A DNA stretch of 56,000 bases, from assembly GCF_025612915.1 (NCBI RefSeq), contig NC_069115.1, positions 8,239,492-8,295,491 of the forward strand, read 5' to 3'. The notes beneath the pieces are model-generated. The model was not told where the DNA came from, ran no database searches, and saw only the letters and a list, made by a program, of their open reading frames with translations. This document shows positions 13,996 to 49,195 of this stretch, piece by piece (the first letter of the stretch is position 1; each line of letters starts with the position of its first letter). Source of the stretch: Crassostrea angulata (Eukaryota). Both the position numbers and the translations under genes were made by a program.

Positions 13996-14575
13996 CCAAA
14001 TACCTAGAGACTTAATAGATCGTCACAATCGATCGCAAGGTCAATCATGTGCACTAGATTTGGTCTTTTAAACAAGGAATAATCTGCTTAACCGGGTCAA
14101 AATATTTCATTTAAATTTCGATTTAATGGGACGAATAGACAAAAGAATTTATTTACGATTCATTAGACAAATGCCTAATTTCGGACATTAATTATTTCCA
14201 TTTTTTATCACTAAAGTCAATAACTCGTGTCATGTTAATGTTTTCATATGTTGCTAAATAGAAAATACGTTTTTCAAAACCAATTTAGAAGTTACATCAT
14301 TGAAAACTGCTAATATATAAATGTATAAACTACGCTTGAAAATTTAAAATATAAAAAAAAACATTTAAGCTAGCTGTAACAGTATATACATGTACAATAT
14401 CTGTAAACAAAAACATTATGCAAGCTTTGTTTATTTTACTTGACAATTAAATTTGATCTCTTATTTCGCTTAAAACTTCACAATTTTGGCTGACCTTTAT
14501 AAATACTTGAGAACAACTCGCCTTGTTAAATAGTTTTTTTTGGAAAATTACTATCAAATCAATATTATTTACATA

Positions 14576-15365
14576 CTGGTACTGTACCAGTTATCGGCTA
14601 AGACCAGTTATCGGTTAAACTGAGAGTTCGGGTTTATAGCACGTGACAATCCAAGATTTTTTAATTCAGTCGTCTCTTTCGAATAAAGAAAAGTAAGTTT
14701 GCTTGAAAACTTTCTTGAATATGTTTTTTACATGAGCTTAAACGATCATTGTTTACCGCTGATTTTACATCTTTGCACTTTCAGCAGTGGGGGAAGTGAC
14801 GTAATAAGTTAAAAATAGAATATTACCTCTTTGTGATACGTTAATTATTATATCCCTTCTTTGATTTGACATATAAAATCAATACATTTAACATGTATAA
14901 ACAAAAGGAATTCACGAATTTCCGAGAAATTTGTAGCGCAATTGAACGCCTGATTGCACAATTATGTATTGAATAGTATACGATTTGGTGTATTACCATA
15001 TGATAATAAACGAATTGTTTATAATGTCTCATGACCCCAAACACTTTAGTCTGACCTAGCAAAGGGGCATAATTCAAACTACATTTAGCAGAGTATAAAA
15101 TCAACATGAACACGGATTTTTACTATGTTATCATCACGAAGCCGATAACTGGTACAGTAAATCGTAAAATCTCGGCAAATTCGGGGCGTGCTTAAAAGCA
15201 CAAAACAAGATGTATTGGGTTCTAAATAATGATATAAACTAACAGATTGATAAATATAAGAAGTTCACTTTTTAAAGTATGTCAAGTTTTATCCAAAAAT
15301 ATCAAGAAATAAGGAATTACGAAAAGAAAACGTAAAATTTTAGCCGATAACTGGTACAGTGCCAG
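14576..15365 (+). mobile_element. ~790 bp non-autonomous DNA transposon (MITE-like), copy 1. It has 26-28 bp terminal inverted repeats flanked by TA, consistent with Tc1/mariner-type insertion
   Basis: 5' end TA|CTGGTACTGTACCAGTTATCGGCTAA..., 3' end ...TTAGCCGATAACTGGTACAGTGCCAG|TA. A subterminal direct repeat 'ccagttatcgg' is present. There is no long ORF. A second, inverted copy lies at 39623-40421. Confidence 0.7.
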
Positions 15366-15461
15366 TACCTAATAGATACTAAACATCCGCTAAACAAATT
15401 TACTTAATCTTTAAGAATATACATTTTTATAGTTTTTATAAAGTGGCGTTCGTTGCAGATT

Positions 15462-19260: not shown

Positions 19261-20306
19261 CCTGAAAAAGCGATGGAAGCAATAACTTGGGACAGACTAT
19301 ACAAAGTTAACTTACGAACTGTGTTAGTACTTGGTAAGGTTAAAGGATTGATGATTCCTGATCGTCGGGAATCGAAATGATCAAACTATTTGCTTGAAGG
19401 CGAAGTCCAAAAAAGGAAGCTTGTTGTTGCACATGATTGTGCAAATTATTAACCAGAAACGACAACTCTAAATTGTACATGTATATGAGACTAATGGAGG
19501 TAATTGAGAGTAGTCTTTCGTGGATCAGCAAGTTATCTATTTTTCTTAATTACTAGGCATCTTATATCAAGTTAAGTATGATTTTTAAACTATGAAGTAT
19601 TTTGAACTAATGATAAAGTTTCCGGACCGTGATAATCCCTAAGTATCCAGATAAGGATCCTCATGCACTCTCTAACCCAGATACTGCAAAGATCTAGTTA
19701 TAAGATAATATTTGCATGACTTACTTGTGTAGCAAACTAAAATTGAAATATAAGGCAAACATTCATCTTATTACTCTTTTGAGAAGTGCAGGTGTTGCAA
19801 AAATGTTCCGTTAATATGCATTACAAATTAGGGTGTCTTTATTCAATAAAGTATATAAACTGTAAATCCTCAAATGCATCAAAGATACATTAAAGAGAAG
19901 TTTTGAGCAGAATGAATTAAATATGTTTTGCCATTTTTCTTTTGCTAACATTAAGGGTAACAAGACCAAATCTCAATTCGCCAAACCCTAAATGTTTGTG
20001 AGTAATTTAAAACACATTTACTTTTCTGCCTAAATGGTATTTTTGTCGTTGTTGTTGTTGAATAATACCGTACTTCATGTACCGCAAAAAGACGACAAGT
20101 GTGCTAGGGAGACAGTTTTTCTTGATTGTCTCCTTCATGAGGAGATACAATTTTATTTGTTAAACGATGACTTCTGAGAAGGATTACGGTAATCACGATA
20201 CCAACTGTGGCGAAAAAGACAATTGCGCAGCTAATTGTGAAAGTGATTTTTACGATTTTTCTCCTCCATATACTACTGCTAAAAGCGTGATGGATGTTTG
20301 GGTAAG

Positions 20307-20310
<4 letters not shown>

Positions 20311-20378
<68 letters not shown>
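20311..20378. repeat. (GA)n microsatellite inside intron 1 of the degenerate EGF gene copy
   Basis: Read directly. The homologous intron of the intact copy has only 'cagagagagac'. Confidence 0.9.
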
Positions 20379-20381
<3 letters not shown>

Positions 20382-20926
20382 ATGGCAATTTTAAATTTTA
20401 TTACGTTTTTACGTCGCAGATTAACTGAATTTAGGCGAGTGTAATGATTTCGGAGAAACCGACCACAACGAGTGCAAAACGTAATGTGTTCATTTAGTAA
20501 GAATATGGAAAATGTGTATGCCCTGCGGAAACCTTCGGGCCACCTTTATGTATCGGTAACATATATTTTCCCTTCTTTTTTTTTCAAAGTACAACACATT
20601 CTGTTCAGGGAAACAATATCCATCAATTGTACTGATTTAGATAATTGTTAATAGAATGTACAATGCAGTTACCGCGGTGACTGTCAGAATGGCGACTGGA
20701 AGTGTTTCCTGGGCATAAAGGAAAATATTGTGAGGGTGATTTTAGAACAAGACTATGGCCGAAATGTAAAATGTCATCATGATTTCTTATCTACAACTTT
20801 ATATCTGATTCGAACAATTTATGGTAAGAAATTGATATATCAGTAGTTATTTTACAACGCTGGTGGAGAAGGTACATCAATTCCTTAAAATCGTTCCGAC
20901 AAATCGACAAACATTGTAGATCCTAA

Positions 20927-20929
<3 letters not shown>

Positions 20930-21017
<88 letters not shown>
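20930..21017. repeat. (TA)n microsatellite just upstream of the terminal exon acceptor
   Basis: Read directly. A (TA)n sits at the equivalent position of the intact copy (38533-38612). Confidence 0.9.
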
Positions 21018-21020
<3 letters not shown>

Positions 21021-21867
21021 ATAATTAGTATTCCTTTTACAGTTATCACTGAATCAAAGAAAACCACAACAGAGAGACCAAGGGATACATTTGGCTCTGT
21101 TGTTGGGAGCTGCGGTACTTCCTCTACCGCTTTTTGTGCCCACCAAATTTGTAAGCACCCTAACATCAGGCTGACACAGTGCAATGTTTTATGAAACCCA
21201 TTGTTCAATGTTATGTTCTTGAAATAGATGAAGAAAACGCTTTGTTATAGTTATTCTGATTATATTGCGTCGAACGTGAAACAATGTAAGTAAAGTGAAA
21301 ATAGAAAATTTTAGTTTAGAATTTAGTTTTAGAATCAGAATTAAAGTATCTCTTTAATTGTCATATAACAAAAAATATTTCAATAAACAAAAACTGTTGT
21401 AAAGGTCCAACCATTACCATAAAGTTTTTGCAATCTACCATTTTTGTCAAATGAAGCTTTACAAAAGCATTTGATATTTGTCCTCTTTGGATAAGAGACG
21501 ATAAACGAGGAACTGTGTTTATTACAAGACAATTGTTGTCTTTTATTGCTGCATTCACATATTTTTACAACACAACACTATCTTAGTATTGGTGTTTTAA
21601 TTACCATAATGAAACATAAAATCACAATAAACAAATCTGACCATCTTAAAAGACATGAATTTCTAGTTTACCACTAGCAAACACATCTAATGGACACCTT
21701 ATATCATTTTACATTCCACATGGACTTCAGATAATTTTAAAATCTTGTGAGAGGTACTTATATATTTTTACAGACTTGTAAATGATGTATGTTGGAACCT
21801 TTTTTTATAAGATAATAAAGCAACCTTACAAACAATTTTTGTTTTACATATCCTAACTTACTATTAT

Positions 21868-22012
21868 ATAAATAGTGCCTGTTTGGGAGGGTAACAGTTG
21901 AAATTGACACCCCGAGAAAACCATTGTCAACCGACGCGAAGCGGAGGTTGACAATGGTTTTCGAGGGGTGTCAATTTCAACTGTTATCCTCCCAAACAGG
22001 CACTATTTATTT
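21868..22012. mobile_element. ~145 bp near-perfect hairpin (foldback MITE-like) insertion that is absent from the paralogous units
   Basis: aatagtgcctgtttgggagggtaacagttgaaattgacaccccgagaaaaccattgtcaacc | loop gacgcgaagcggag | reverse-complement arm. At 46740-46780 and 50690-50730 the flanks are contiguous ('cttactattaatatatataaaagatttcag'). Confidence 0.6.
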
Positions 22013-22589
22013 TGTTATACTGAATGTCTTTTTTAAAATTTTTAAGAAAATTTTACTGCTTTTATATAGGAATAACGTGAATTCTACAGCGAACCGTACG
22101 CGCATAATTTTCGCGCATGTAACATTTTTTAATGTTACCCGTTGCCAAGTGCGTTGCTAACGCTGAGGGTAATAGTAAATATTATTAACTGCGTCTTAAC
22201 CAATCAGATTTCAGTATTTAACATGAAAGTATAACAATAATATATATGAAAGATTTCAGAGAGTATTTTAATTGCCCCTCAAATAGGGTACTTTAGTTTC
22301 TCATATATGTCTTTAAGCTAGCATAAACAATGTAAAACTACTCTTTATTGTAAATGAAGGACGTTTATTTGTGTACAATCACAATTAAAGAAAATTAACT
22401 TTATCTTCTATTGTTAAATATCTATTTTTTTTTTACCTTTTCAAAAAAAAAAGATTCGAAGAACGAATACAACGAATTCTTTTGACACTCGTCATAAATA
22501 ACGCAACTTAATTAATATTTGTCCAAATGTGATTGTTAACAAAACTCTAGGTTTAATGTATACATGGCTTGTAGCCACATAAATAACTT

Positions 22590-23400
22590 AAACGTGCCTA
22601 CCTTACATGTAACTGTCAATTTTGTGATCAATGATATGATTGCATGGCATAATTGACCTACTGTGGGATCATTTATATTCGTGGTGTCAATTTTCGTGGG
22701 TAGTCAAAACGGTGCCGCTTAGTGGGAACCTTATTTCGTTAGTATTAAAAAAAGGCTGGTATATACTTTCAAGGGGGTGTAGTAAATTAGTTGACAATGG
22801 TTACCCACGAAGTTAGTCACTTTAGAACATTAGTGTCCCACGAGTAATGATAATTCTACAGTAATGACTGGATTAGATGTGTTACACTCCACTTAATGTA
22901 TTAGTATTCAGTGTACATAATGTATCCTCTTGTATAACGAATGTAAATTGGGTACCTTATACGATTATGCATGGTGGCTACGATGATAGTAACATGTACG
23001 TACATAATCGAATTTCAAAAAACATGTTAACAATTCGTATTTTTCTCACTATTAATCATTTTTAAAAAATGGGAAAGTGTATTTAAACAATCTAAATATT
23101 AAGTACTTTTGACTATGTGAAGAGGGCGTAGAGTTACACAGTGTCGAAGTACCGCAGTGGACAATGCACTCGCTTTTCACCCCTGCGACCTGCGTTCGAT
23201 CCCCGTGATCGCAGTGATTGTATGTGACAGGGTATGGCGGTCGCCCACTTGGACACGTTGGTTTTTCGGGGTACTCCCGCTTTTTTCCGCATCAATGAAC
23301 CCCGTCGAGCTAAGTTGTCGAACTTGTTTGTAAATCGTTGTAAAATAACTAAATAAATTTCAGTTCATATATTTTTTGTTTATAATGTTTACAGTGCTTT
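22590..23400 (+). repeat. Copy of the tRNA-like-containing low-copy repeat (homologous to 47140-47960 and to 51020-51390 + 52563-52960)
   Basis: Long by-eye collinearity, including 'cataattgacctactgtgggatcatttatattcgtgg'. Confidence 0.7.
23118..23312 (+). mobile_element. tRNA-like sequence, probably a tRNA-derived SINE, full-length copy
   Basis: A-box-like TAGAGTtacacAGTG and B-box GCGTTCGATCCCC. The same sequence recurs at 47656-47860 and 52676-52871 and, lacking the head, at 4138-4262. Confidence 0.5.
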
Positions 23401-25795: not shown

Positions 25796-26744
25796 TCCCC
25801 ATACCCCCCCCCCCAAACTTCTGAATCTTTACATGCAAATTTCAACAACCACTGCAGGTTTTTCTTTAATTTTGAGCTCAAAAAGCTGCTGTGTAGCTTT
25901 AATATATCAAAATCCATCTAAGTACTGTCTACCGTGATCACCGTATATGACATGTTATAGTCCAGTTTACTTTTTACGATTATTTCCGGTTTTGACTTAA
26001 ATCAGTTACGTATTTAGTTATGCATAGGCCTTATAAAAAAATTATTGAAAGTTTAAAACATCTTGATTTTACTCTGTAACCAAAGAAAACAATACACAGC
26101 CAGTGGTGTCACTGAACAGGTGCACAGGTAAAGCACCCAAGCCACGTGCAGTGAGTCGTGACTAATTCTGTCTGGCCAACACGGTCGGTAAAAATCAAAG
26201 TGAGTTTGGAACACTGAGTGTTTATACAAGCTACCGATAAAAAAAGTATATCACAAGAGTTTTGGAAGTTTATAGTACCGGTGTTGTATAGCAGTTTTTC
26301 CCCCATAGTAGCTTTTCCCCCCGGAAAACCTACTATATAGTAACCTTTCCCCCCAGGGGGAAAAGCTACTATATAGTAGCTTTTCCCCCATAGTAGGGTT
26401 TCTCCCTCACGTGTTTGGTTCAGATTTTATAAAAAATATTTATGGAAATCCAGTAAGGATTAAAATCAATGTTTCTACACTCCCAGGTTGCATACATGTA
26501 TATCTGCATTCATCTGTACAGGTTAAGTTTCGTTTTGCCGATTTATTATTTTTATAGACAATGCTGAAAGTTGAACATGTGTGTAATGGAATTACACAAA
26601 GAACTTAATTTAGGTATACACTTATATGCATAATTCTGTGTTCTGAAATTGTATTAAACGAGAATGTTTTAAGAATTTCTTGATAAATTTATCAGACTGT
26701 TTGTCTGAAATTTCATCCAGGCTAAACCTCTGTTTTAGAGAAAT

Positions 26745-27345
26745 TTTGTTTCCGATGTTTCAGAGCCCGATTTTTAAAATCCTATTATAATAATTACAGT
26801 GCATATTCGTTAGGGTCCAATTCAATTCAATTTATTATCCTTTAGCTTTACAACTCATCGGAATACAAATTATAATACATATAAAATTATATACAAATGT
26901 GCAATGTGCAGTAAGTGAGTGGACATATTAAGACAATATAATCATGTACATATCTAAGATATGAATGAACATAAATGTATAAGGGTCCAATGTCTCATAA
27001 ACTAGAGATGACCATATTACCATATTTTTATAGTGGCAGTGGTTTACCACTTGAAGATGCATATGACTCTGAAAATTTCAGCTCTCAGGGTAGGGGCCCT
27101 TGATGTTTCAGGGCCCGATGTTTAAAACCCCATTATAATGACTGAATAGTGTTCTATAAGTGGGGACCCGAATATCAAATTCTAGAGATGACTAATTAAC
27201 CATATTTTCACAGTGATAGTGGTATACCACTAGTAGATGACACCGAAAATGCCCCCATGCAGGGTAGGAGCCTTTGTTGTTTTCGAGCCCGATGTTTGAA
27301 ATCCAATTATAAAGAATATGTATTTTTTAGGGACCCATATCGCAA
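26745..27345. repeat. Tandem repeat, ~190 bp unit, about 3 copies
   Basis: The recurring block 'gggcccgatgtttaaaa(c)cc(c)attataat...agagatgacca...accatattttcacagtgatagtggtataccact...cagggtagg' is seen three times. Confidence 0.6.
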
Positions 27346-27681
27346 AAACTATAGATGACCACATGAACATATTTTTACGGTCATTTAAAAGTAAAAACAT
27401 CATTTAAAAATATACAATCACTCATATATTTCTTTATCAAAATGATTGAAAATTACGATTAATTCTGCTGCTTTTTTTTTAATTTACGAACATATTTTTT
27501 TAAAAAAGGTACGCGGGTAAAGTTTATCATTCTTCAAAACATTTAATCAATTCATAAGGTGACTAATGATATAATAAATAATTAGATAAATAAATCAATT
27601 CATAAAAGGAGAAACCGAAAATCAAAAATAGATAACCAACCTAAGCGCTTATACGACTTTTTTACTTGTAAGTTGATTAGT

Positions 27682-28431
27682 ATGGTGGCATATCTCTGCC
27701 CCTTGTGTGCAAGTTATTTTTCTATCAAATATGTCGACATGCAAGATAAATATGTTGACATGCAAGATAGTTATGTCAACATGCAACATAACTATGTTGA
27801 CATGCAAGAAATTGCAATCTGATATGAATTATACAAAATCTCAAAAAATCGCCCGTCTGTGACATCCAAGATGCTAGATGTTATCTTTCTATGTCGACAT
27901 GCAACTTATTTATGTTAACATGCAAGATAAATATGCTGACATGCAACTTATTTATGTCAACATGCAACTTATTTATGTCGATATGCAACTTATTTATGTC
28001 GACATGCGAGATGAATATGTCAACATGCAACTTAGTTATGTTTACATGCGAGATAAATATGTTGACATGCAACTTATAAGTTGCATGTCAACATAACTAA
28101 GTTGCATGTTGACATAGATATGTTGCATGTCAACATATTTATCTTGCATGTTAACATAACTAAGTTGCATGTCGACATAAAGAAGTTGCATGTTAACATA
28201 AATAAGTTGCATGTTGACATCAATAGGTAGCGTATCTAGCATCTTGGATGTCACATGTTGGCGATATTTGAGATTTTTTATAACTCTTTTTTGATTGCAG
28301 TTTTCTTGCATGTCAACATAGTTATCTTGCATGTTGACATAACTATCTTGCATGTCAACATATTTATCTTGCATGTCAACATAATTAAGAGAAAAATAAC
28401 TTGCACACAGTGGGCAGAGATATGCCACCAT
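27682..28431. mobile_element. Foldback-type element, copy 2 (inverted relative to copy 1). ~42 bp terminal inverted repeats plus inverted arrays of ~21 bp subrepeats
   Basis: 5' atggtggcatatctctgccccttgtgtgcaagttatttttct ... 3' agaaaaataacttgcacacagtgggcagagatatgccaccat. The subrepeats switch orientation at ~28075. Confidence 0.7.
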
Positions 28432-28492
28432 AGATTAGAAGAACAAGCTTATATTTTTTTTTAAAAGTCAGCTCATCACAATATATGTGTTG

Positions 28493-28526
28493 GTTGTCTT
28501 TTTTTTTTTTTTTTTTTTTTTTTGGT
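28493..28526. repeat. poly(T) tract
   Basis: read directly. Confidence 0.9.
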
Positions 28527-30520
28527 TTTTGTTTGAATTTTTTTAAATTTCCCCTTGTTTAATTGTTCGAAGAAATGATATGGTACACAAGTAAATCTTT
28601 ATTGCAAAAATATGAAACAAATAGTATAATTTTTTTAGGTAATTGAATCGTATATCTTGATTTATATAGCATCGTTTTCAAAATTGTATATTTATAAATC
28701 ACGTTGCAAACTTAAAAGTGGAAAAATTAGCAAATAGTGAGTGACAATATAAACATAAAGTTAGTTCAGGCTCCATTTCACATTTTCCAAAGTAACCAGC
28801 AAAGATACCGACATTGTTCTGGTTGTGAAGACATTTCATTGTTTTTTTAAATGTTTACATCATAATATCTCGCGTTTCGTAGAAATGTGCTTAAGAATAT
28901 GAATATGCGTAACTTTAAACGAAATGGTAAACACTAACTTTACACATGCTTTAATTACATAATTAAAATACCCCTTAAACTTAGAACCCCATCAATCAAA
29001 GTAAAACTAAAACATTTCAGTTTCTCATCATACCATTGCATCATGTCTCCCGTTTGATATTTAGAAGAAGAAATATATAATTGTTTTTAAGATCGTCAAT
29101 TCTAACGGTATTAATTTAAAATCGATAGCCTTTTGGACGAAGGGAGTAATACGTTTCCACTTTTTATTCCCTTCCTCTACAAAATTAAGTCAAGATTGGT
29201 CAGTTAGTTCCCTGGGAGAAGCTTATACATTGATGGTAATACATTAGAACAATTAAATTTCCAAACCGGCGTATTTTCACTCAAATGTGTTCTCACGTGT
29301 TCATAACGTCGAAGTCAAAACTGTATATAAGCATCGATTAGATGAAAAAGATTCGAGGTATTCCGAAATCCGTGTAAAAGGTGTTCCAAAAAGGGGTGAG
29401 AACAGGTGAAATAAACGATGATGACACATGCATGTTATAAAGGCGCATAGTTCATATTTGGGGTTGAAAAACCATGTATTTTATTCTATGTATTAATAAA
29501 TGCCATAATTATCCTTTTTTGTGAGAAATTAATATCATATCAGTTATTGCAAATTATTGTCACGAATGGTCCGCAATAAACATGGCCGGAAAGTAAAAAA
29601 GGGGGAAAATCCACTATATAGTAGGTTTTCCGTGGGGGTAATCTGGCTATAAAAAGGGGGAAAGCCCACTATATAGTCAGCTTTCCGTGGGGGCAAAACT
29701 GCTATATAGCCATTTTTCCGGGGGGAAGAACTGCTATATAGCCATTTTTCCGGGGGGAAAGATGGCTAGGGGGAAAAGGCACTATATAACACCGGTACTA
29801 TGAATTACAGGGATACTATAGATATTACAACATAGATCATTTTTAAATGATACTGGAGATATACATGTTGTTTTGTAAATTAAAAATCTATCCTATATAT
29901 AAGGCAAAAAATAAATTCATAATTTTAATGAATATTATTTACTGGTATTTTCTTAACTGGGTTTCACTGCAACTTCAAAATACGCAAAAAAATATTCTGT
30001 GTTTACCCTAGATGTCAGCATGCAGTGATGGTTCAATACTGAACAATAAGATGACTTAATATAAAAAGTGGCACTACTGACTTTTTGTTTTGTACCATGC
30101 AAACAAAATCATAGTTTTCTGAACAAGTAGAGCAACACAAGTTGTAATTGCACACTGGTAGTCATAGAAATAATAAAATTTGAAATGATTACAAATGCAT
30201 TAATTACAATGAAAAAATAAGGTATCTAACAGTATTTTTTAACATATATTTGCATTTCACGTGAAAAAATGCCGTTTACGCAAAATCTCCCCCTTAGCCA
30301 AGTTGGTAACGGGGAGATTCTCCCACAAAGCAGCTTTGAAAGGTTAACAGGTATGTAAATGTTTAATCAACTTGTTTAAAAAATTTATTTGTGTAGTAAT
30401 TTAAATAAAACGTCAATAAAGGAGGCATTTTGGAAAGATTCATAATTTAAATTGCTTAGTTTGAATCGTATGTATCTACGTTCTGCCAATATATAAAAAC
30501 CGCCTTTTACATTATCGGAT

Positions 30521-31623: not shown

Positions 31624-32736
31624 TTGAAATATTCCTTAAAAGTTTAGCTAGTGATATATGAGGTAATCAAAATTTTTTATCAGCACTTTCCCTACAGTGG
31701 TGCTATTATGTATTAAAGAATGAATAGTTTTTAGTAAGTAACGAAAGGTAACTCCGCATCATTCTGCAATTTTTAATGGCAATGTTAAGTAATCTTCTGC
31801 GGTCACTTACTTATGGTAAACATTTTATTGAAAGCAATGTTTGCAAGAGGGATGGATGATTGTTGCCATTTATAGACAGCATTGATCTATTTAAGATGAA
31901 CAGTTTTGAATAGAGATAACGAAAAATACTTAAAAGCTAGAATCTAGAGATTTTTTCCTGTATCTAATATTTCTTTTAGAGTAACAAAACATACCTGCAT
32001 GTTGAAGGTTGATCTGATGGAAATCATTTTGACGACCCAGCCTATTAAGTTGTTTGCAAGAAAAGTTATCAACGAAAACTGACATAATTAGATAATTTTC
32101 CAACGATCGAGGTTCAATTATGTTGATAGACTGACCCAGTTGTTATCACTGACGTTCTAAATAAACATCCACATTCAATACACTATGTAATTTTCTCCTC
32201 TTAGATATCCGCAAGTGTTTACAAATATCAATGTATGATCCTTTATTGATATGATTAAGGATAACTTTAAGGTCGGGTGGATACCAAATGAACGAGTACT
32301 GTAGGGTGTCTTATCATGAATATTTGTTATGTTTAAAATATACAACGTCAATATATGACAAAACAAGTGCCAGTAATATCTATAAGTCTGTGCTTGTATC
32401 TTTTGATGAAAACGTAGTACTCCATAATTGAAACAATAATAAAATGTAACAGGTAACCATCCAGGAACACAAAACATAACAATGTTTCACATTATTATTT
32501 TTTATAATATTTCAAAATGTAAAGGTCCATTTACATGTAAAATGGAAATTATACATATACATAATTATCATTACCTATTTTGAAATATACACGGAATATT
32601 AAAACCAAACTCTAATTAACTACTCTTCAACTATTTCTTTATCCAATCCTAATATAAAAAAAATAAACCATGTTTTAAAATACATGTCCAAGTAATTTGT
32701 AATTTTTAAATATACGTGTACAAGTAATTTGTAATC
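31624..32736 (+). repeat. Low-copy repeat block D, copy 1 (second copy at 54272-55980). Ends in a 32 bp minisatellite into which a LINE inserted
   Basis: Long by-eye collinearity with 54272-55980. The short ORFs at 32175-32477 and 54822-55013 are homologous. Confidence 0.75.
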
Positions 32737-34745
32737 ATTCATTCATTCATTCTTTATTTGCACAAGACATACATCTTATGGCATAGGTTATTACATATTA
32801 TTAATAGCAATATTGAAATAATGGTATGGTACATGTACATGTACATGTAAAGTACATTAACAATATATATAAAATAAAATTTTACTAACAGGCGAAAAAA
32901 CCAGAGAATTTTTCTTAATTATCATGATTATTGAAAGCTAGTTTGAGATACTTCCCCAAATTACACAGTTCTTTAAAATTTTGAACACTGAATGATTGTA
33001 TAAATTTGTATACAGAAGGTTTTTTCCAATAATATTTCTTAATATATTTTACTCGGATTTCTCTATACTGCTGACATTTCAAAACAAAATGGAATTCATC
33101 TTCAATATCTGAACAAAATTTACATAAGTGTCTTTCTTTTGGTACATTAGTGTGTCGTCCACTTTCAATTGCAAGTCTATGAGATGACAATCTAATTCTT
33201 GGAATTTGTTTCTTATATGTAGAAGGTATTGATTTTGTTAAATAATATTGTAATGAAAACTGGTCAATAATACGCTTGTAAAAATAACATCGAGATGAGG
33301 AATTAATCTGTTCTACAAGATGTTGAGTAAAGTGATCAATGATTCTTTGCTTAATTAAAGGAAAATAGGTTGCACAATGTATATACTCCTGTTCATACCA
33401 TATATGTCCTAGACCTATTTCAAAAAGTTTATTTTTAATTACAGTAACCCAATTTTCAGCAGGTGCCAAAGACGATTCACAGTCATCATACAGCATTTTG
33501 TAACAGGACTGCAAAATACAATTCTGACTTTGTAACAATTTGAACCAAAATTTGAATATTCTAAACATTCGTATAGTTTTCATAGGTAGACTCCCAGTTT
33601 CAAAATATACAATTGCAGTGTTTGTATTTCTCTTCACACTTAACACAAATTTAATATATTCTAAATGCACTTTTTCTATATCATTTGCAGCATGCATGCC
33701 CCATATCTCACAGCCATAATTTAATATACTAGCAATATAAGTATCAAAAATTGACAGCATTGTTTCAGTGTTCAGATACAATTGACTTGGTTTTTACTTT
33801 AAAGAAAACATGGCTTTTCTCCCTTGGCTCACCAACTGTTTCTGTGTATTGTTAAACTTTCCATTATATTGTAACAAAAGGCCCAGATATGTAAAGCTAT
33901 CGACAACCTCAATTGGCTCGCCATTTAAATGCCACCTTTCATTATTGTGAATTTTACCACCATTTCTAAAAATGACAATTTTGGTTTTTTGTACATTTAC
34001 AGTAAGATCCCAGACAGATGTATAAGAATACAATGTATCTAACATTTCTTGAAGCTCATGTGCAGTTTCGGAGAAAATTACCATGTCATCTGCGTACATT
34101 TAAACAAAAAGATTTAACTCTTGAATTTGTATTGGTATGTTACCTTTACACAAAAATTCCATTTCAAAATCATTCACATATAATGAAAACAATATTGGAG
34201 TTAGCACTTCTCCCTGCAAAAGTCCTTTGTTATTTTTAAAAAACTCAGATAACTTTCCTGCTGAATTAACACATGATTTCATAATATTATACATACTACG
34301 AATGAAATTCAACAATTTTCCTCTAATACCAACGTTAGACAATTTTTCCCATAATTTCAATCTTTCAACAGTGTCAAATGCTTTCTTAAAGTCAACAAAA
34401 TAACAATACAATCTTTTTTTACTTTCTTATTGACATATTAATAATATTTGAAAGGCTAAATATAGCCTCAGCTGTACCTCGTTTGGGTTGAAATCCAAAC
34501 TGTGCATCAGTGATTACATCATTTGCGTCAGACCATGTTAACAATCTTTGATTCAAAATAGATGTGAATAATTTACAAAAGCAACTGACAAGACTAATGC
34601 CTCTATAATTATTGGGGTCTAATGCATCACCCTTTTTAAAAACTGGTATTATAATACACTGTGCCCACATATTAGGGGAAAAACCAGAAGACAATTTTCT
34701 ATTGAATAATCTTAGTATAATTATGTAGACTGTTTTACCGTACAT
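32737..34745 (-). mobile_element. 5'-truncated non-LTR (LINE) retrotransposon carrying a frameshifted reverse-transcriptase ORF2. Its (AATG)n-like tail is inserted into the minisatellite of repeat block D
   Basis: Minus-strand ORFs 34419-34745 (...IPVFKKGD..NYRGISL..FQPKRGTAEAIFSL), 34100-34411 and 33794-34099 (MYADDMVIF, the YADD reverse-transcriptase active site), and 32915-33781 (C-terminal CKFCSDIEDEFHFVLKC knuckle). The pieces lie in different frames, i.e. frameshifts. The 3' end is (gaat)4 at 32737-32752. Confidence 0.85.
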
Positions 34746-35690: not shown

Positions 35691-38317
35691 CAGGTTAAAC
35701 GAACATATTTATTTACTTAATGGTTGAAAATAAAATCTTCACCAAAAATGATGAAACATACACTTTTTTCTGGTGCTAGTGTTCGTTATATTTCCTATGC
35801 CATTTCAAAAGCTATCTTCATTTCCTGGACATAGTCAACATGGTACAAATGCTATCCTGAACCGCAATTATATTCCTGCAGCAGCTTTAAAAGTTGCAAA
35901 ATCAGAAAATGGAATTCGAGAAGAGCGGAGATAATTTTGTTTTTGGGATCACGATTTCTTTTAAAGATCAACATTAGAAGTAGGGTTAAAAGCATCTGTC
36001 CATATTATACCAATGTACTTTAACATTGTGCTTTTAATATCAACTAGCAACTATTTTTTGCGTGTAATTTCCAAAAAGAGAAATGGTGCAATATCTTTAT
36101 TTAATCTTGATTAGCTGTAATTAAGTATTAATTATTTGAATCTTTCTAATGTGTGATTGCTTTGACTGTGTTATTCAGTACCCTTCTGTTTCATCATCTG
36201 ACTCCTTCCAATCTTAAACAATGTGGTAAAATGTTTGGCCGTATTTGTACGTCTTACAATAGTTGCAGAACAAGAAATATAAAAATCAATTGTTTATAAG
36301 CTATTTGTAAAAATGAATTGCTGAGAGATCGGTTCTTCTATTGACTGGTTGTTTTAACATCATTTTTGGGGGGTTCACTGGGCAAAAGGATGTTATCGCA
36401 CGAATAAAGAAATGATTAAACACTATGTATTAATCATATACATGTAATCGATTATAATCCTGTCAATTCACGTATAAGCATGTTTATGTTAATTATCTGG
36501 CTGCAAGCTCTGTACGCATTACACTTAAAGTTCTGTTTACATTCATTTATGCAGCAAAAATAAAGAAGACGTTGTCTTTTACAAAAAGGAAGATTTCGTT
36601 GATTCCTTTGCTAACATTTTTTTTAACATAATTGCATAAAAAAAATTGTATTCGTTCATAGAACCCTTTTTATGAGAAGGTAAAAATATTAAATAGATCT
36701 TGAACAATGGAAGATCAAGTTTTAAAGAGTTTACTTTAGTGATTGTACACAAATAAACATCCTTTATCTATAATAAAGATCAGTTTTAGAAAAGAATTGT
36801 TTATAGATACATGCATAAGAAACGAATGTACCCTAACTAAAAAAGCAATTGAAATACTCTCTGGATTCTAGTATGCATACTGTATTGTAAAGATATGTAA
36901 AGCTAAATAGTTCGTAACTTGAAGGTTGTTTTATCACGTGTTTGTGGATTACTATGTTACTTACCATGGTCAGGTCTTTTTTGATTCTTTTAATTTTTTA
37001 AAATATGATTTAAATATGTTTGCTATTAACATTGACAACCAGGTGTTTATGGGTTTACTAGAAATATGTTATTTAAAATGGTCAGGTTTTTAAAAAGTAT
37101 TTTATGTTTAATATATATAAATGCTTTTGAAACACCAATACTAAGAAAGTGTAAGTTGTGATGTAAAAATACATGAATGCAGCAATAAAAGACAACAATT
37201 GTCTTGTAAAAAAAAAACGCAAATCCTCACTTATTGTCCCTTATAGGCCATATATTAAAAGTTTTTTTTTAAAGTTATATTTGACTAAAATAGTAGATTT
37301 CTCAAGATTTATGGTAAACTTATAGTAAAGGCATACCCAGAATATTTAGACCAGTACAACAGTTTTTTCGGTTGAAATATTTCACCCCAGCGAATGTTTT
37401 TGTCATTTAAATTTAGACCACGTGGTTTTACTTGACCCTTTCAGTTTCTATTTCCTAGAATCAAGATACATGTACTTGCAGTCAAATATAAAATATAGAC
37501 TTTTTTTTAATTTTAAACTTTATATCCATTTATTGGTGGATGAGCTGTGCATTGAGTTCTAGAAAGAAATGGGACAATAGAAATAGGTTTTTATGATCTT
37601 GCAACAATTAACATGCTTAGAAGCGACCCCCCCCCCCGGATTAATTTTCAATCCGCGCCTGACCTAGTCATAGCACCAGTAGTGAAACAGACTATACTAT
37701 TTTATGAAGGATGTTCCTTGAAATTGGCTCGATAAACTATGTTTTAATTCAAAACAGACATTCTTTATTTTTTTAAAGGCATGGTAATGCACACATAAGC
37801 ATCAACCATGGCTATGATTTTATTATTAAAAGCAACCCAATGTTTATATTTTCAACCACTCTACACGTGGTTGAAGACGAACGATAACTCTGTTCTAAAT
37901 ACCATCGTTTAGTTTAAATAACTGATAGATGATGAAATAAGACATATATCTTAATATATTTTCATGTTTTAACATAAATCAAAGTAGGATATGATATGAA
38001 AAAAAGATCAGTTCTTACATATTTTAAGAATATCTTCCGAACACTTATACTTCCGCTAAAAATTTCACAGGAACTGAACAAATCTCGGGGAAGTCTCGAG
38101 AGCTTTCATTCGAGCACCTCTGGATTTATTACATACTAAGCAACGATAAGGAAAACATTCCGAACACATTCGCAGGGGTGTATTTGTTGACAGTTATATA
38201 GATTTTTAAACCGATCTGGTGCATTTCAAGAGTAGAACTTTCTATTTCTCATTAACTTACTTTGTTTCACGTTTGACGCAATTTATAATTATATGAACTC
38301 TAACAATGCAATTTTTT

Positions 38318-38323
38318 TTTATT
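38318..38323 (-). promoter_or_regulatory. Candidate poly(A) signal AATAAA ~47 nt downstream of the stop codon of the EGF-like/TM gene
   Basis: Minus-strand 'gaaataaaaaaaaattg'. Confidence 0.4.
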
Positions 38324-38369
38324 TCAAGACATGCCATTATCAATGGGCTTCATACAACAGTGCACTGTG

Positions 38370-38497
38370 TCAGCCTGATGTTAAGGCGCTCACGAGACCG
38401 GCTGGTACAAGAAGCAGTAAAGGAAGTACCGAGGCTCCCAACAACAGAGCCAAATTTATCCCTGGTCTCTCTGTTGTAGTTGTTGTAGTTTCGATCA
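38370..38497 (-). CDS. EGF-like/TM gene, exon 4 (terminal, phase-1 acceptor). Encodes a Thr-rich stalk, a transmembrane helix and a stop
   Basis: Acceptor ttccttttaacag|TG. Translation (V)IETTTTTTERPGINLALLLGASVLPLLLLVPAGLVSALTSG*. The TM segment is conserved in all paralogs. Confidence 0.6.
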
Positions 38498-38528
38498 CTG
38501 TTAAAAGGAATACTGAATTATTACATAG

Positions 38529-38532
<4 letters not shown>

Positions 38533-38612
<80 letters not shown>
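38533..38612. repeat. (TA)n microsatellite in intron 3
   Basis: read directly. Confidence 0.9.
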
Positions 38613-38616
<4 letters not shown>

Positions 38617-38849
38617 TTTGCTTGAGGATTGTTGTAACGTTAAATATAATATTGATGTTCAATTGCAATCCCCACCAAACATCGCAGAATAGTGCACAAT
38701 AATACTAATTTGAATGAATAGAACCCACTTCCACCAACGTTATAAAATAACTAAATATATATGAACTTTTCATTACAAATTTTAACCAAACATCGAACCA
38801 ATATGCTATAAAATTGTAGATGCGCGCCTTAGTCTTGTTCTCAAATTAC

Positions 38850-38945
38850 CTTCACAGTATTTTCCTTCATACCCCGGGAAACAAACACATTCGCCATTCT
38901 GACAGTCACCGCGATAACTGCATTGTACATTCGATTCACAATCAT
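38850..38945 (-). CDS. EGF-like/TM gene, exon 3 (96 nt, phase 1-1). Encodes the third EGF-like domain
   Basis: Acceptor ttattatttag|AT, donor GAAG|gtaatt. Translation (D)DCESNVQCSYRGDCQNGECVCFPGYEGKYCE, six Cys with the CxCxxGYxGxxC signature. Confidence 0.6.
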
Positions 38946-39027
38946 CTAAATAATAAAATTGATGACTACAATTTTATTCAACAGGATTCATTGCACTTTG
39001 AAAAAAAAGAAAGAGAAAATATGTTAC

Positions 39028-39150
39028 CGAGACATTCAGGAGGCCCGAAGGTTTCCGCAGGACATACGCATTTTCCGTATCCTTGCGTAGTCAACTCACA
39101 CTGTGTATTTCCTTTGCACTGATCAGTCTCTCCCACATCATTACACTCAC
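39028..39150 (-). CDS. EGF-like/TM gene, exon 2 (123 nt, phase 1-1). Encodes the second EGF-like domain
   Basis: Acceptor ...ctgatttag|GT, donor CTCG|gtaacat. Translation (G)ECNDVGETDQCKGNTQCELTTQGYGKCVCPAETFGPPECL. Confidence 0.55.
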
Positions 39151-39258
39151 CTAAATCAGTAAAACTGCGACGTGAAATAATAACAAAATTTATATTTATT
39201 AATCAACTAATTCAAAATCGTCATTAGCCGCCAGTCTCTCTCTGTTTCTGCTACTTAC

Positions 39259-39406
39259 CCAGACATCCCTGGTTTTCAGCAGTAGTGAATGGAGGAAAGT
39301 CGTAAAACCCACTTTCACATTCACATTCAGTATTGTACATGACAGTTTTGCAAATGGCATTCTTGCGACAGTCGGTATTGCCCGTACAACCTGCCTCCAT
39401 AGTCAT
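39259..39406 (-). CDS. EGF-like/TM gene, exon 1 as annotated from the conserved ATG (148 nt, ends in phase 1). Encodes the first EGF-like domain. No signal peptide is visible, so an upstream exon is possible
   Basis: Minus-strand ATGACTATGGAGGCAGGTTGTACG...GGATGTCTGG|gtaagt. Translation MTMEAGCTGNTDCRKNAICKTVMYNTECECESGFYDFPPFTTAENQGCL. A candidate phase-1 acceptor (ttttctccttcattag|CA) lies 29 nt upstream of the ATG. Confidence 0.5.
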
Positions 39407-39622
39407 CTTTCCCCCAAACAAACAAATTGAAAATGCTAATGAAGGAGAAAATCAAACAATACTGCATCCCTAGCACACTTGTCGTCTCGTTGCGGTGCAC
39501 TGGTATATGAAGAACGAATTATTCAACAGCAACTTTTATATATAACGAAAAATAACCTTAAGGCAGAAAGGTAAATCTGTTGACTACTACTGTAATAATC
39601 ATTTTGAGTTAAGGCGTGCATA

Positions 39623-40421
39623 CTGGTACTGTACCAGTTATCGGCTAAAATTTAACGTTTTCTTTTCGTAATTCCTTATTTCTTGATATTTTTGGATAAA
39701 ACTTGGCATACTTTAAAAAGTGAACTCCTTATTTATTAATCTGTTAGTTTATATCATTATTTAGAACCCAAAACATCTTGTTTTGTGCTTTTAAGTACGA
39801 CCCGAATTTGCCGAGTTTTTACGATTTACTGTACCAGTTATCGGCTTCGTGATAATAACATAGTAAAAATCCGTGTTCATGTTGATTTTATACTCTGCTA
39901 AATGTAGTTTGAATTGTGCCCCTTGTGAGGTCATACTAACGTATTCGGGGTCATGTTACATTATAAACAAAACTCATAAAATAATTCGTGTATTACCATA
40001 CGGTAATACACCAAATCGTATACTATTCAATACATAATTGTGCAATCAGGGGTTCAATTACGCTACGAATCTCTCGGAAATTCGTGAATTCCTTTTGTTT
40101 ATACATGTTAAATATATTGATTTTATATGTCAAATCAAAGAAGGGATATAATAACGTATCACACAGAGGTAATATTCTATTTTTAACTTATTATGTCACT
40201 TCCCCCACTGCTGAAAGTGCAAAGATGTAAAATCAGCGGTAAACGATGATCGTTTAAGCTCATGTATAAAACATATTCAAAAAAGTTTTCAAGCAAATAC
40301 TTACTTTTCTTTATTCGAAAAAGACGACTGAATTAAAAAATATTGGATTTTCGCGTGCTATAAACCCGAACTCTCAGTTTAGCCGATAACTGGTCTTAGC
40401 CGATAACTGGTACAGTACCAG
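39623..40421 (-). mobile_element. ~800 bp TIR element (MITE-like, TA-flanked), copy 2, inverted relative to copy 1. Inserted in the 5' region of the EGF-gene unit
   Basis: TA|CTGGTACTGTACCAGTTATCGGCTAA ... TTAGCCGATAACTGGTACAGTACCAG|TA. The interior matches 14576-15365 in reverse complement. Confidence 0.7.
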
Positions 40422-41469
40422 TACTCTTTATGTTATAATCGAAGTATTATTAAAATGTGTTAAATTTATTCTGTTTAAAACTTCTCTTTATTGCATTTTT
40501 GGTGAATCTGAAGATTTTTATAGAATATATACTACATTGATCAAAGACATCCTAATTTGTGTTGGATATCAGCGGAACAGTTTTGAGACGCGTGTTCTTC
40601 TTAAATGCAGAGTAATAAAATGAATGTTTGCCTTCTATTTCAATTTTAGTTTGTATTACATAGACACACAAGTTTGCAAGCTATACATTAACGATATTTT
40701 TAACATGTAGGTATATTATCATCCACCCAGACACCTACAGTCAAGGTATATTCTATTGGATAACTACGTGTACCCACGTGCTTGTGCTTCACAATTAAAT
40801 AAATCTTGCAAAACTTCTGTAATACTTAGTAAAGTTGTGTAGTATCTGGATTAGAGAGTGCACGAGAATCCTTATATCTATATCTGTAGGGATTATTATG
40901 GTCCAACAACTTTATTATTAATTAGATTTATCATTACTTCATTGCAAAATAATCTTATTCTGTTTTTTGACTGGTTGAATAATTAGTTATCTATAATGAA
41001 TAACAAACGAAATGAATGTGTATCGAGCGTGATCGTTGGTGTATCAATACAATAACAATAACGTTAAGGGTCCTCAACACACCTGGGAAAAGTTCAGCAT
41101 ACAAGTCCATTCTTCTAAATTACTTAAAGATATGGATTTCTAGCATGTGTTGGAATTGAAAATGACAGGAAAAAATTCAAATGGGGGGGGGGTCAACTTT
41201 TTAAAATTTTACCGCTATTCAAGAAAATAAAAATACTTCGAAATAATGTGAACTAGTCGAGGTCTTTGGCCTCATGCTCGATCACGCATTTTACCAGGCT
41301 ATTTGTGTTACTTACTCTCAGCAAAATTCTGAATATTAGACACATACATAGAACATCTTTTTCGTATTTTAACAGAGGACATTGATAACTTGCGACGTTG
41401 TTTTGAGCGAGCTACGTCTATCTTTTTTGTGAGCGCACATGTATATTATTAATCATAAATTTATGAGGA

Positions 41470-42718: not shown

Positions 42719-45167
42719 AGAACTTTATTTCTACTCTACTAACAGCCCAATATTTCTCTTATAGAGAGACGATATAGGTCATTTTGACAGGTCTGTTCCG
42801 TGTAACCCCAACGGGTTTGTTAGTAATGTTTACATGTGTATCGATCAAAGGAATATCACATGCAGACGACAGAATTGTTCTTTGGATTTTTAATAATTTT
42901 CACTTATCTATAAAATACGTTTGAATCATATTCCTAATATTTTAAGGGCAATTTAATACGATTATTACTATTACACGTTATATATTTTATAACACTGTAC
43001 CGGATAATTATGCCAGTGCCAAGTACGTGGCATTTTTGCGCCCGCTCAAGGCGAAGCGGTTTATAAAAAAAAGCGTAAACTGTTTCAAACCATTTTATAT
43101 TGACGAGTATAAAACTAATAAATATTGAATTCATTGCTTATGATTTAATTTTTTTACTCTTCATCGCAGATAAAAACGGTCATTTGACTTAAATAAAAGC
43201 ACTTATTGATACCATTAGGGGCTGACAAATACATTTTTTAAGCACTTGCCCTCGGCCAAGTGGCTGGGTAAAATTTACTTGCCCTACCTCAATATCTACT
43301 AGCCCTACCAAATTCTTTAATGTGATTAAAAATAAACAATACATATACTGTACGATGTTTTTGCCCTTTATTTTAAATTTTCCCACTTTTAATACTCTTT
43401 ATGAAATATATATGGTTTGTATTTAACATCTCTTCCTCTTCGGTTTTCTCGAGAATGTGTTTAAAAAATCAACACTTTACATATTGATATTTAATTAGAT
43501 TTGTTCTCAAGGTAAAATAAAAAGAAAATAAACATTTTTATTAACAATTTTGGTTGTTTTGATCATTTCTTTCACCTTAGGTGAATGTCCGAGATAATAG
43601 GTGACAAGCGCACACGCATTCACAACCGTGGTTTCAATAAGGCCACAGAGGTGTTAAAAATAAAGGTGAAATGAATCTTCAGCGAGTTGTTTAACTTAGA
43701 CTTATGATATCTAAATCATATTAAGCCTGATATTTAAATTTTTAAAAAGCTTTAGCGAGTGATAACAGGCACATATCCATTTTTAGCATCAGTTATGGCG
43801 GCGTACATGGAGACGGTGAACAAACTTCAATGGTGAAGTTAAACATAGAATAAAGTTAAACAGCTCAAATTTTTGTTAAATTGCCATTTTATAAGTATTT
43901 ATCTGTTAACATATTATAATCAAAACAGTTTTTGGAATTAAAAGGCTCATTAGACTTCTGGGCTGCGTTCAAGATCGTAGCTGCTACGTAGGGCTATCAT
44001 ATGTTACAAACATATTTACTTATTGATAGCGAGCGCAGCTCGCCGGCTCACAGCGCCGGCGCGAAGCGAGCTCTACCGGCAAGGCGTGTGTGAATAGAAA
44101 ATTCGGACTAGTTGTACATTCATTCAACGGATTTTTTTAGCGTCAGAAATCGGACCAGTAATGCATTGTTTTAATCGTCCCAGTAGTTCCCTGTAATCAT
44201 GGCAATTTTTATCACTTCACACTCTCACGAGAATCAGCAAGACAATAAAACCAATAACGATGTATACGACATAACGTTACAGTCAATGGTACCTCTAAAG
44301 TTCACATCAGTACACTCTCAATAAAAATATAATCGAGTGACGTCACAAAGGTTTACACATTGATCCGGTAGCTAGATTTTCTCGGCGTCAGTTAATTTTG
44401 ACCCACAATTCATAGTACCAATGGTTTCCAACCTCACGTTCTCCCGAGAATCAAAGTACATATCAGAAGTGTAATTTTAAGAGCATCATGCTTTTTAAGT
44501 AAATAAAACAGTATACTTCGCCAGGGACGTATAACATTTCCCAAACTCCTTTTCTTTAATGTTTCTCTCAGATCAGTGGTAATCTTTAACAATCTCGTGA
44601 AATTTATTAACTGATCTAGAAATCGTCGGTACATCAAAACGATAACTCCAAATTGTACATGTATATGAGACCAATGGAGGTAATTGAGAGTAATCTTTAG
44701 TGGATCAGATAGCCACCCATTTATCTCAATAACTGGATATCTCATATCAAGTTAAGTCCGATTAAGTCTAAGTAATTTGAACTAATGAAAAAGTTATCTG
44801 ACAAGAAAATCCCTACGTGTACGGATAAGGATCCCCATGCACTCTCTAACCCAGATACTGCAAAGATCTAGCTAGTTATAAGATAATATTTGCAAGACTT
44901 ACTTGTGTAGCAAACAAAATTGAAATATAAGGCAAACATACATTTTATTACTCTGAATTTGAGAAGTGCAGGTGTTGCAAAAATGTTCAGTTAATATTCA
45001 GTACAAATAAGGCTTTCTTTAATCAATAAAGTATATAAACTATGAAAATTCTCAAATGCACCAATACAATACAATAAAGAGAAGTTTTGAACAGAATAAA
45101 CTAAATATTTTTTGCCATCTCAATTTGCCAAACCCTAGCGTTTTCCAATTTTTTTGTTTGTTAAACG

Positions 45168-46138
45168 ATGGCTTCTGAGGAGGATTATGGTAATCACGAT
45201 ACCAAGTGTGGCGAAAAAGACAATTGCGCAGCTAATTGTGAAGGTTAAAGTAGATTTTACGACTTTTCTCCAGTACTACTAAAAGCGATGGATGTTTGGG
45301 TAAGTATCAGGAACAGAGAGAGAGAGAGAGAGAGAGACATGAGAGAGACATGAGAGAGAAAGAGAGAGACGGGAAAGAGAGAGAGAGAGCGAGAGAGAAA
45401 TTGGCGGGTAATGGCAATTTTAAATTAGCTAATTGTTTAATACAAATTTTATTACTTTTTCACGTCGCAGATTAACTGAATTTAGGCGAGTGTAATGATT
45501 TGGGAGAAACTGACCACAACGAGTGCAAAACGTAATGTGTGTTCACTTAGTAAGAAAATGGAAAATGTGTATGTCCTGCGCACACCTACGGACCACCTCC
45601 ATGTCTCGGTAACATATATTTTCTTCTTTTTTTTCAAAATACAACACATCCTGTTCAGTGAAATAATATCTATTAATTGTACTGATTTAGATGATTGTGA
45701 ATCGAATGTACAATGCAGTTACCGCGGTGACTGTCAGAATGGTGACTGGAAGGGTTTCCTAGGCATGAAGAAAAATATTGTGAGGGTGATTTTAGAACAA
45801 GACTAAGGCCTAAATGTAAAATGTCATCATTATTTCTTATCTACAACTATATATCTGATTTGTGCAATTTGTGGAAAGAAATTGATATATCGATCTTTAG
45901 TTATTTTACAATGCTTGTGGAGATGGTGCATAAATTTCTTAAAATCGTTACAACAGTGTAGATCCAAACTGTTATATGCTTGCAAAAATAAGTATTCCTT
46001 TTTACAGTTATCTCTGAATCAAAGGAAACCCTTACACAGAGACCAGGGATAAATTTAGCTCTGTTGTTTGGAGCCGGGGTACTTCCTCTACCGCTTCTTG
46101 TGCCCACAATTTTCCTGAGCGCCCTAACATCAGGCTGA
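45168..46138 (+). pseudogene. Degenerate EGF-like/TM gene copy in unit A. Exon 1 has an in-frame stop (TGT GAA GGT TAA). The EGF-3 exon has lost cysteines C4-C6 and reads through its donor (ORF 45495-45806)
   Basis: ATGGCTTCTGAGGAGGATTATGG...TGTGAAGgttaaagtag. The terminal exon ends in tcaggctga at 46130-46138. Confidence 0.6.
45308..45400. repeat. Imperfect (GA)n microsatellite in intron 1 of the degenerate gene copy
   Basis: read directly. Confidence 0.85.
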
Positions 46139-47655: not shown

Positions 47656-47860
47656 TTGGACTATGTGAAGATGGCGTAGAGTTACACAGTGTCGAAGTAT
47701 CACAGTGGACAATGCACTCGCTTTTTACCCCTGCGACCCGAGTCCGATCCCCGTGATCGACAGTGATTGTATGTGACAGGGTATGGCGGTCGCCCGCTTG
47801 GACACGTTGGTTTTCCGGGTACTCCCGCTGTCTTCCGCATCAATGACCCCTTCGAGCTAA
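47656..47860 (+). mobile_element. tRNA-like (SINE-type) sequence, copy 3
   Basis: gatggcgtagagttacacagtgtcgaagtatcacagtggacaatgcactcgc...cgagtccgatccccgtgatcgacagtg. Confidence 0.5.
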
Positions 47861-48992: not shown

Positions 48993-49148
48993 ATGGCTTC
49001 TGAGGAGGATTATGGTAATCACGATACCAAGTGGGGCGAAAAAGACAATTGCGCAGCTAATTGTGAAGGTTAAAGTATATTTTACGACTTTTCTCCAGTA
49101 CTACTAAAAGCGATGGATGTTTGGGTAAGTATCAGGAGCAGAGAGAGA

Positions 49149-49195
<47 letters not shown>

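Follow-up and report, generated by a model that had tools for sequence, protein, structure and literature searches.

Two nested non-autonomous DNA transposons, probably of the Ginger1 and IS3EU/GingerRoot types, in a 3.5 kb composite element of Crassostrea angulata

The transposases of two superfamilies of DNA transposons, Ginger1 and IS3EU/GingerRoot, are related to retroviral integrases. In this study, a composite element of about 3.5 kb was analyzed in a 56,000-nucleotide stretch of the oyster Crassostrea angulata (NC_069115.1, positions 8,239,492 to 8,295,491; hereafter the window, from the first letter of which all positions are counted). The region probably consists of two nested non-autonomous cut-and-paste DNA transposons: an outer element of the Ginger1 type and, inserted into it later, a foldback MITE (miniature transposable element with inverted repeats) of the IS3EU/GingerRoot type. 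The outer element extends from 26282 to 29791 (3,510 bp), with the tips 5'-TGTTG...TAACA-3', and a perfect 4-bp CCGG read from the sequence flanks it on both sides (26278-81 and 29792-95). A sequence-only reading had recognized the composite structure, with its paired ends and nested insertion, but had set the boundaries 9 bp too far out on each side; the termini said to reach 'tagta' thus took in the 4 bp of the duplicated target and 5 bp of flank, and the duplication sought at 26272/29802 exists as CCGG further in. Its description holds insofar as the region is a single DNA transposon, non-autonomous, whose long terminal inverted repeats are made of sub-repeats and which carries a nested foldback-type insertion; its ends are paired and it has no open reading frame (ORF). 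The ends and target site comprise the following features.

26272-26277: left flank ATAGTA, read from the sequence; other copies of the family diverge right after CCGG.
26278-26281: left target-site duplication CCGG, 4 bp, assigned from the sequence, the end of family homology in 26 ORFs and PMC2836005.
26282-26406, plus strand: left terminal inverted repeat, tip TGTTGTATAG followed by half units; the partners of the half units at 26337 and 26373 lie inverted at 26320 and 26356.
26356-26389: perfect 34-bp palindromic unit GGGGGAAAAGCTACTATATAGTAGCTTTTCCCCC, which folds as a 15-bp stem.
29601-29791, minus strand: right terminal inverted repeat, minus-strand tip TGTTATATAG, with half units at 29769, 29721, 29689, 29656 and 29601.
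29792-29795: right target-site duplication CCGG, 4 bp, assigned from the sequence and from the single occurrence of such a pair in the window.
29796-29801: right flank TACTAT, read from the sequence as the reverse complement of ATAGTA on the left.

Published Ginger1 elements are marked by inverted repeats of ~40-270 bp, TGTNR tips and a 4-bp duplication, of CCGG in 75% and of CCGT or ACGG in 24% of cases (PMC2836005, Bao, Kapitonov & Jurka 2010). The outer element resembles them in all three respects: CCGG is perfect on both sides; the tips are TGTTG (26282-86) and, as the reverse complement on the right, TGTTA (29791-87); and the inverted repeat lies within the length range, being alignable over 122 nt at 73.8% in arrays of ~125 bp (left) and ~190 bp (right). 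A CCGG-TGT...ACA-CCGG pair occurs once in the whole window, as the outer element. The Ginger1 transposase is Gypsy-integrase-like, with YPYY, H2C2, DDE and GPY/F (PMC2836005), whereas the outer element has stop codons in every frame and its longest ORF does not exceed 72 amino acids (aa); this copy is therefore non-autonomous. Non-autonomous copies with common ends have been reported for the superfamily (PMC2836005), and a C. gigas satellite, CgiSat41, is annotated as DNA/Ginger1 (PMC8268682).

The two termini are an inverted pair, as had been proposed. The 13-mer TAGTACCGGTGTT has exactly two matches in the window, inverted relative to each other at 26273-26285 and 29788-29800; the termini thus share a unique outer sequence and are not independent arrays. 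Together they form an imperfect inverted repeat (26269-26390 versus 29804-29688, 122 nt, 73.8%, E 3e-16). Both arrays are built from a 17-bp half unit, ATAGTAGCTTTTCCCCC; a scan of the window for it gave 11 matches at up to three mismatches, all inside the two ends. Each end carries five or six inward copies of this motif, and the well-conserved ones point inward at both ends, on the plus strand at the left (26288, 26305, 26337, 26373, 26390) and on the minus strand at the right (29601, 29656, 29689, 29721, 29769). Several half units are paired head-to-head into palindromes of ~34 bp that are completed by weaker partner halves; at the right end the half units at 29721, 29689, 29656 and 29601 form imperfect ~34-bp units in this way and the one at 29769 is unpaired. 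Since a palindrome has no orientation, it is the asymmetry of the half units, and not the palindromes, that shows the arrays to be mutually inverted. The ends had been described as three to five tandem copies of a perfect 34-bp palindrome. Palindromic units are indeed present, but just one (26356-26389) is perfect, with no match expected in shuffled sequence; the others are 68-90% alike, no second unit lies within three mismatches of the quoted 34-mer, and the base unit is 17 bp.

This end type recurs outside the window. An exhaustive phmmer search against cluster representatives with a 46-aa ORF running through the left end returned 77 matches, 29 of which are short ORFs translating the same type of end, with the shared peptide MGEKLLYSxFSPxGExLLYSxFSGGKxYYGGKTxIQHR. 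The best is 93% identical; one is the UniRef entry K1PFU9 of Magallana gigas, and the remainder come from contigs in ENA, JGI or Logan that are no longer than 72 kb. The 48 longer matches (~400-1,900 aa, ~27-50% identity, mostly with several matched stretches) were assumed to be unrelated repeat proteins. The same ORF gave zero matches in a word-indexed protein search, and the 29 relatives from phmmer reversed that conclusion on copy number, in agreement with the expectation of further copies. At least three subfamilies are visible among the end ORFs, and their peptides (GGKGYYIVRFPPGEKLLYSQFSGG..), when back-translated, give the same mix of full 34-bp palindromic and 17-bp half units, so that the layout is conserved and is no accident of the window copy. 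Conservation extends into ~100 bp of interior beside the left end: the window peptide ..IFFIKSEPNT*GRNPTMGEK.. aligns with IYFPKSKPKTLGGNPAMGED in P0057 and with IKSEPKTSRRNPTMGEN in P0091.

The same translated ends locate the boundary. In 26 ORFs (19 that share a frame, two and four in the other two frames, plus a special case) family homology ends at ...ACACCGG, or ...ATACAACACCGG, and the residues beyond vary by copy. The closest relative, P0055 (93%), is already unlike the window from the fourth base outward, and the peptide P0094 agrees with a CCGT at the position of CCGG. In P0110, which comes from an ENA contig of 60.6 kb and is available as protein only, ...LQHR-CC-IVVLPP corresponds to ...CAACACCGGTGTTGTATAG, that is, a right end followed by a left end with one CCGG common to both, as expected if CCGG is the target; this indicates either two copies at one target site or an end-to-end junction. 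Taken together, the stop of homology at CCGG in the 26 ORFs and the single CCGG of P0110 lead to CCGG being best read as the duplicated target, and the outer 'tagta' as flanking DNA.

The reconstructed empty site, ATAGTA-CCGG-TACTAT, is ATAGTACCGGTACTAT, a perfect 16-bp palindrome (26269-26281 / 29792-29804 region). Outside CCGG, eight of nine pairs are symmetric, with a chance of ~2e-4 by our own estimate (0.28 per pair). Among the other copies, YAY is enriched after CCGG, with A at flank position 2 in 15 of 20, and the window palindrome is stronger than this flank bias. A preference for palindromic targets would plausibly fit a symmetric integrase-like complex; the Ginger2 target is RTATAY (PMC2836005). 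In its extended perfect palindrome the insertion site differs from those published for Ginger1.

The symmetry of the site also suits the wider boundaries of the sequence-only reading. On that account the inverted repeat would begin at (A)TAGTACCGGTGTT and TA would have been duplicated, which would make the element Tc1/mariner-like, of the type in which each end has several internal binding repeats (inverted repeat/direct repeat, IR/DR). The ends are indeed perfectly inverted-complementary out to 26272/29801, with eight of nine further pairs matching to 26269/29804; TA stands directly beside GTACCGG on both sides; and the tip ATAGTACC agrees with the inner motif ATAGTAGC at seven of eight positions. 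This account is nevertheless improbable. Homology stops at CCGG in the 26 other copies, P0055 departs from the window within a few bases, and the P0110 ends share one CCGG with nothing between. Furthermore, TAY follows in just 6 of 20 frame-A copies, the rest having CA, TT, AA, GA and others where TA would be obligate, and the tips are unlike those of Tc1/mariner. A family-wide comparison is thus needed to tell inverted repeat, duplicated target and flank apart, since a single copy misled on the boundary.

Foldback elements make a 9-bp duplication, and hAT elements have the target pattern nTnnnnAn. An affinity to Foldback (FB/MuDR-related), P/Galileo, hAT or another classical group with long inverted repeats, of which the Foldback-like one had been suggested for this region, is very unlikely. 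The long inverted repeats of tandem sub-repeats and the lack of coding capacity speak for it, and Drosophila Foldback and Tetris-type elements share the long inverted arms of short tandem repeats, the hairpin potential and a link to satellite-like repeats. However, the tips differ, no direct duplication of 7-9 bp stands at any plausible boundary, and the duplications present are of 4 bp (outer) and 6 bp (inner), so that the 9 bp of Foldback is found in neither element; tips and CCGG together suit Ginger1 (PMC2836005). The A at flank position 2 is likewise unlike the hAT pattern. Other candidates that were tried and rejected for the outer element are a 6-bp duplication (AGTTTA versus TGAATT), duplications of 8-9 bp, a TTAA target and a KolobokP composite, in which the long repeats are direct and not inverted. 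Alternatively, there would be no single element: the two arrays would be solo ends from separate copies, or products of a local inverted duplication, with 3.2 kb of ordinary DNA between them by chance. This agrees with the lack of a second full-length copy, with an interior unmatched in the window and related contigs and with arrays of unequal length just 74% alike, yet it is very unlikely, as these are the sole two ends in 56 kb, an outward-facing pair each abutted by CCGG, and solo ends would not both hold a duplicated target in the correct register.

Several points weigh against assigning the outer element to Ginger1 with CCGG as its target. The perfect inverted complementarity of the two 6-bp stretches just outside the CCGG copies would also suit an inverted repeat extending beyond CCGG in the window lineage. 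Both flanks of the outer family are known from the window copy alone, the other copies being translated single ends. Sub-repeats in Ginger1 ends, such as the arrays of 17-bp motifs, partly 34-bp palindromes, at the window ends, are not stated in PMC2836005. No autonomous partner with matching ends turned up for either element (no eukaryotic genome was searched), so that end structure is the sole basis of both superfamily calls. In addition, a BLAST search with all element parts against ~110 kb of related bivalve contigs matched the foldback family alone and not the outer family, and scans of the accessible DNA collections, which hold little bivalve DNA, did not find the latter. Three scans of viral contigs gave nothing; one of metagenome contigs with TAGTACCGGTGTTNTATAG gave four chance matches without sub-repeats, the pattern having taken in non-conserved flank (cf. 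CCGGTGTT...); and one of genome contigs for the palindromic unit gave a single match in a Prevotella metagenome-assembled genome, which was assumed to be a chance palindrome. Exact look-ups of the window ORFs found none on record, a literature search on exact sequence strings returned chance primer matches only, and in Rfam all matches were generic hairpins far below gathering scores; no tRNA genes were found.

The inner element had been delimited at 27682-28431. It is a complete hairpin element, with limits one base further out on each side.

27675-27680: left 6-bp duplication GATTAG, from the sequence.
27681-28432: nested foldback MITE, 752 bp, tips TA..TA (TATGGTGGCATATCTCTGCCC...), with outer arms of 131 nt each and 21-bp sub-repeats in arrays.
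28433-28438: right 6-bp duplication GATTAG, from the sequence.
7853-8409: second foldback copy, rearranged, with one full outer arm ending ..GGGCAGAGATATGCCACCATA at 8409 and a central palindrome.

The 752 nt form a near-perfect hairpin (DNA fold energy -296.6 kcal/mol, z -35.8) with outer arms that are 95% complementary over their 131 nt, and the 21-bp sub-repeats have a 10-bp palindromic core (ATGTCGACAT). Relatives were fetched from public contigs by way of a spurious 129-aa ORF, and additional copies, 91-94% identical, sit among other flanking sequences. The family ends are TATGGTGGCAT, every complete copy has the tips TATGGTGG...CCACCATA (TA..TA), and perfect 6-bp duplications accompany four independent insertions: GATTAG in the window, ACCTTT in L008, GATTCA in L010/L011 and CATTTT in L013. 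IS3EU elements have TA..TA tips and 6-bp duplications (PMC10045372), and GingerRoot elements additionally have inverted repeats of 100-150 bp (PMC6839031). The nested element shows the TA..TA termini, a 6-bp duplication that varies among insertions and arms of ~130 bp, within that range. From the tips, duplications and long inverted repeats, the family fits a foldback MITE of the IS3EU/GingerRoot superfamily, and not the Foldback superfamily. It departs from published IS3EU/GingerRoot elements in being a non-coding 752-bp hairpin that is self-complementary throughout; all recovered copies are non-coding and 0.7-2.1 kb long, and no transposase-bearing relative was among them.

The second occurrence in the window, first given as a copy of the element at 7853-8408, is related yet incomplete and rearranged: one outer arm is full, the other end is a degenerate stump of ~30 bp (~7853-7884), and no duplication is detectable. 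Two further arrangements are seen in the related bivalve contigs (L013 10016-12255; L012 4362-6468): a foldback copy that abuts another or is nested in it, and a 2.1-kb variant whose 96% identical arms enclose ~1.2 kb of additional internal DNA. The 21-bp satellite CgiSat43, which has the AT content of the foldback 21-bp repeat, is unrelated.

The remaining interior of the outer element is non-coding and contains a degenerate repeat array.

26407-26744, plus strand: sub-terminal interior without ORF; the first ~100 bp are kept in other copies at the translated level.
26745-27384, plus strand: short, degenerate satellite-like array with a 174-177 bp period, in which a single monomer (27102-27275) is full and three are partial.
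28439-29600, plus strand: non-coding interior with stops in all frames and a T-rich tract at 28499-28534 (88% T by Tandem Repeats Finder, TRF).

The array had been reported as a 190 bp tandem repeat at 26745-27345. A repeat array is present there, but its period is shorter, its monomers are degenerate (69-89% identical) and it was not reported by TRF even at a score of 30. Repbase names of the DNA4-31 style denote unclassified elements with 4-bp duplications. A distant match of the array (61% over 234 nt, E 2e-8) is the C. gigas satellite CgiSat42, annotated as DNA/DNA4-31 (PMC8268682). Short arrays inside mobile elements are the dominant pattern in C. gigas (PMC7492417, PMC8268682), and the window array, with its few ~175-bp monomers, resembles the transposon-borne oyster arrays Cg_HINE (PMC7492417) and CgiSat42 (PMC8268682). 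HINEs, which derive from Helentrons, have sub-terminal inverted repeats, a microsatellite in the left module and a 3' palindrome flanking the array. The core motif of the window array does not occur in the supplementary sequences of Cg_HINE (PMC7492417), TRF reported no microsatellite beside it, and no Helentron end structures were seen next to it, without detailed modelling of its flanks. The interior at 28439-29600 has no other copy in the window.

The end architecture suggests how the outer element could have moved. Its 17-bp motifs would be transposase binding sites, with the enzyme supplied in trans by an autonomous Ginger1 element, and the head-to-head palindromic pairs would be bound by a transposase dimer, as at piggyBac and Hermes ends. 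The outer element would have been inserted with duplication of CCGG, and the 752-bp foldback MITE later into its interior with duplication of GATTAG. The anatomy, the duplications, the multiplicity of copies and the CCGG boundary throughout the family are shown; we infer both the binding of the motifs by transposase and the identity of the autonomous partners that would mobilize either element. In piggyBac, a 19-bp palindromic internal repeat is bound by a dimer of the cysteine-rich domain (PMC7351741), and in Hermes quasi-palindromic sub-terminal repeats are bound cooperatively by BED domains (PMC10368747). The sub-repeat, which had been called unusual, is therefore known in kind: in all three systems repeated, partly palindromic motifs lie just inside the tips and differ in number or quality between the ends. 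In contrast, piggyBac and Hermes belong to other superfamilies, with TTAA and 8-bp duplications, their binding has been demonstrated where that in the oyster would be deduced from anatomy, and the window units are longer and more numerous. Tentatively, the oyster ends might be multi-site dimer-binding platforms new to the Ginger1 superfamily, used by an enzyme that prefers the extended palindromic target RTR-CCGG-YAY, although this is doubtful. If it is true, the family may reveal how a Ginger1-type integrase-like transposase reads its ends and picks its target.

The region is not a new element class. Apart from the unusual architecture of its ends it is ordinary repeat DNA, and both of its elements are in known superfamilies. 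In annotation, the 3.5 kb should be masked as a pair of non-autonomous DNA transposons, one of the IS3EU/GingerRoot type nested in one of the Ginger1 type. The conserved half-palindromic and palindromic end arrays in several oyster subfamilies, together with the palindromic target, bear on end and target recognition by integrase-related enzymes.

The surrounding window has ~32% GC, with GA and AT microsatellites. A unit of ~4 kb occurs five times (3088-5709, 19331-23374, 36646-40918, 44269-48100 and 48104-53055); the last two are in tandem and 97% identical over 2.4 kb. Since the unit at 36646-40918 is inverted, the copies form a large inverted arrangement, and the Ginger1-type element lies within its unique spacer. 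On the minus strand at 11136-12398 lies an intronless 420-aa ORF without a Pfam domain; its homologues are in bivalve data alone, with the best transcript at 97%, the Saccostrea echinata protein LOC133186387 at 48% and one longer homologue that has a BIR domain. Three ORF fragments without a Pfam match (31-486, plus strand; 32915-33781, minus strand; 51352-51894, plus strand) share the C-terminal motif FRCG.LPL..ETGR...C..C...EDE.HF, which we take to be the typical tail of ORF2 of a long interspersed nuclear element (LINE).

Other repeats of the window include an 810-bp inverted pair (14574-15367 and 39621-40423, 92.6%), each member of which starts with the 17-bp direct doublet ACCAGTTATCGGCTAAG. 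A 32-bp minisatellite, TTAAATATACATGTACAAGTAATTTGTAATTA, is present in 11 copies at 55612-55967 and two at 32673-32735, and both sites adjoin a 775-bp repeat (31625-32395 and 54274-55042, 93%), which suggests another repeat-carrying mobile element. The self-complementary segments at 21868-22010 and 52328-52477 (143 and 151 nt, 87-91% identity) may be other small hairpin elements.

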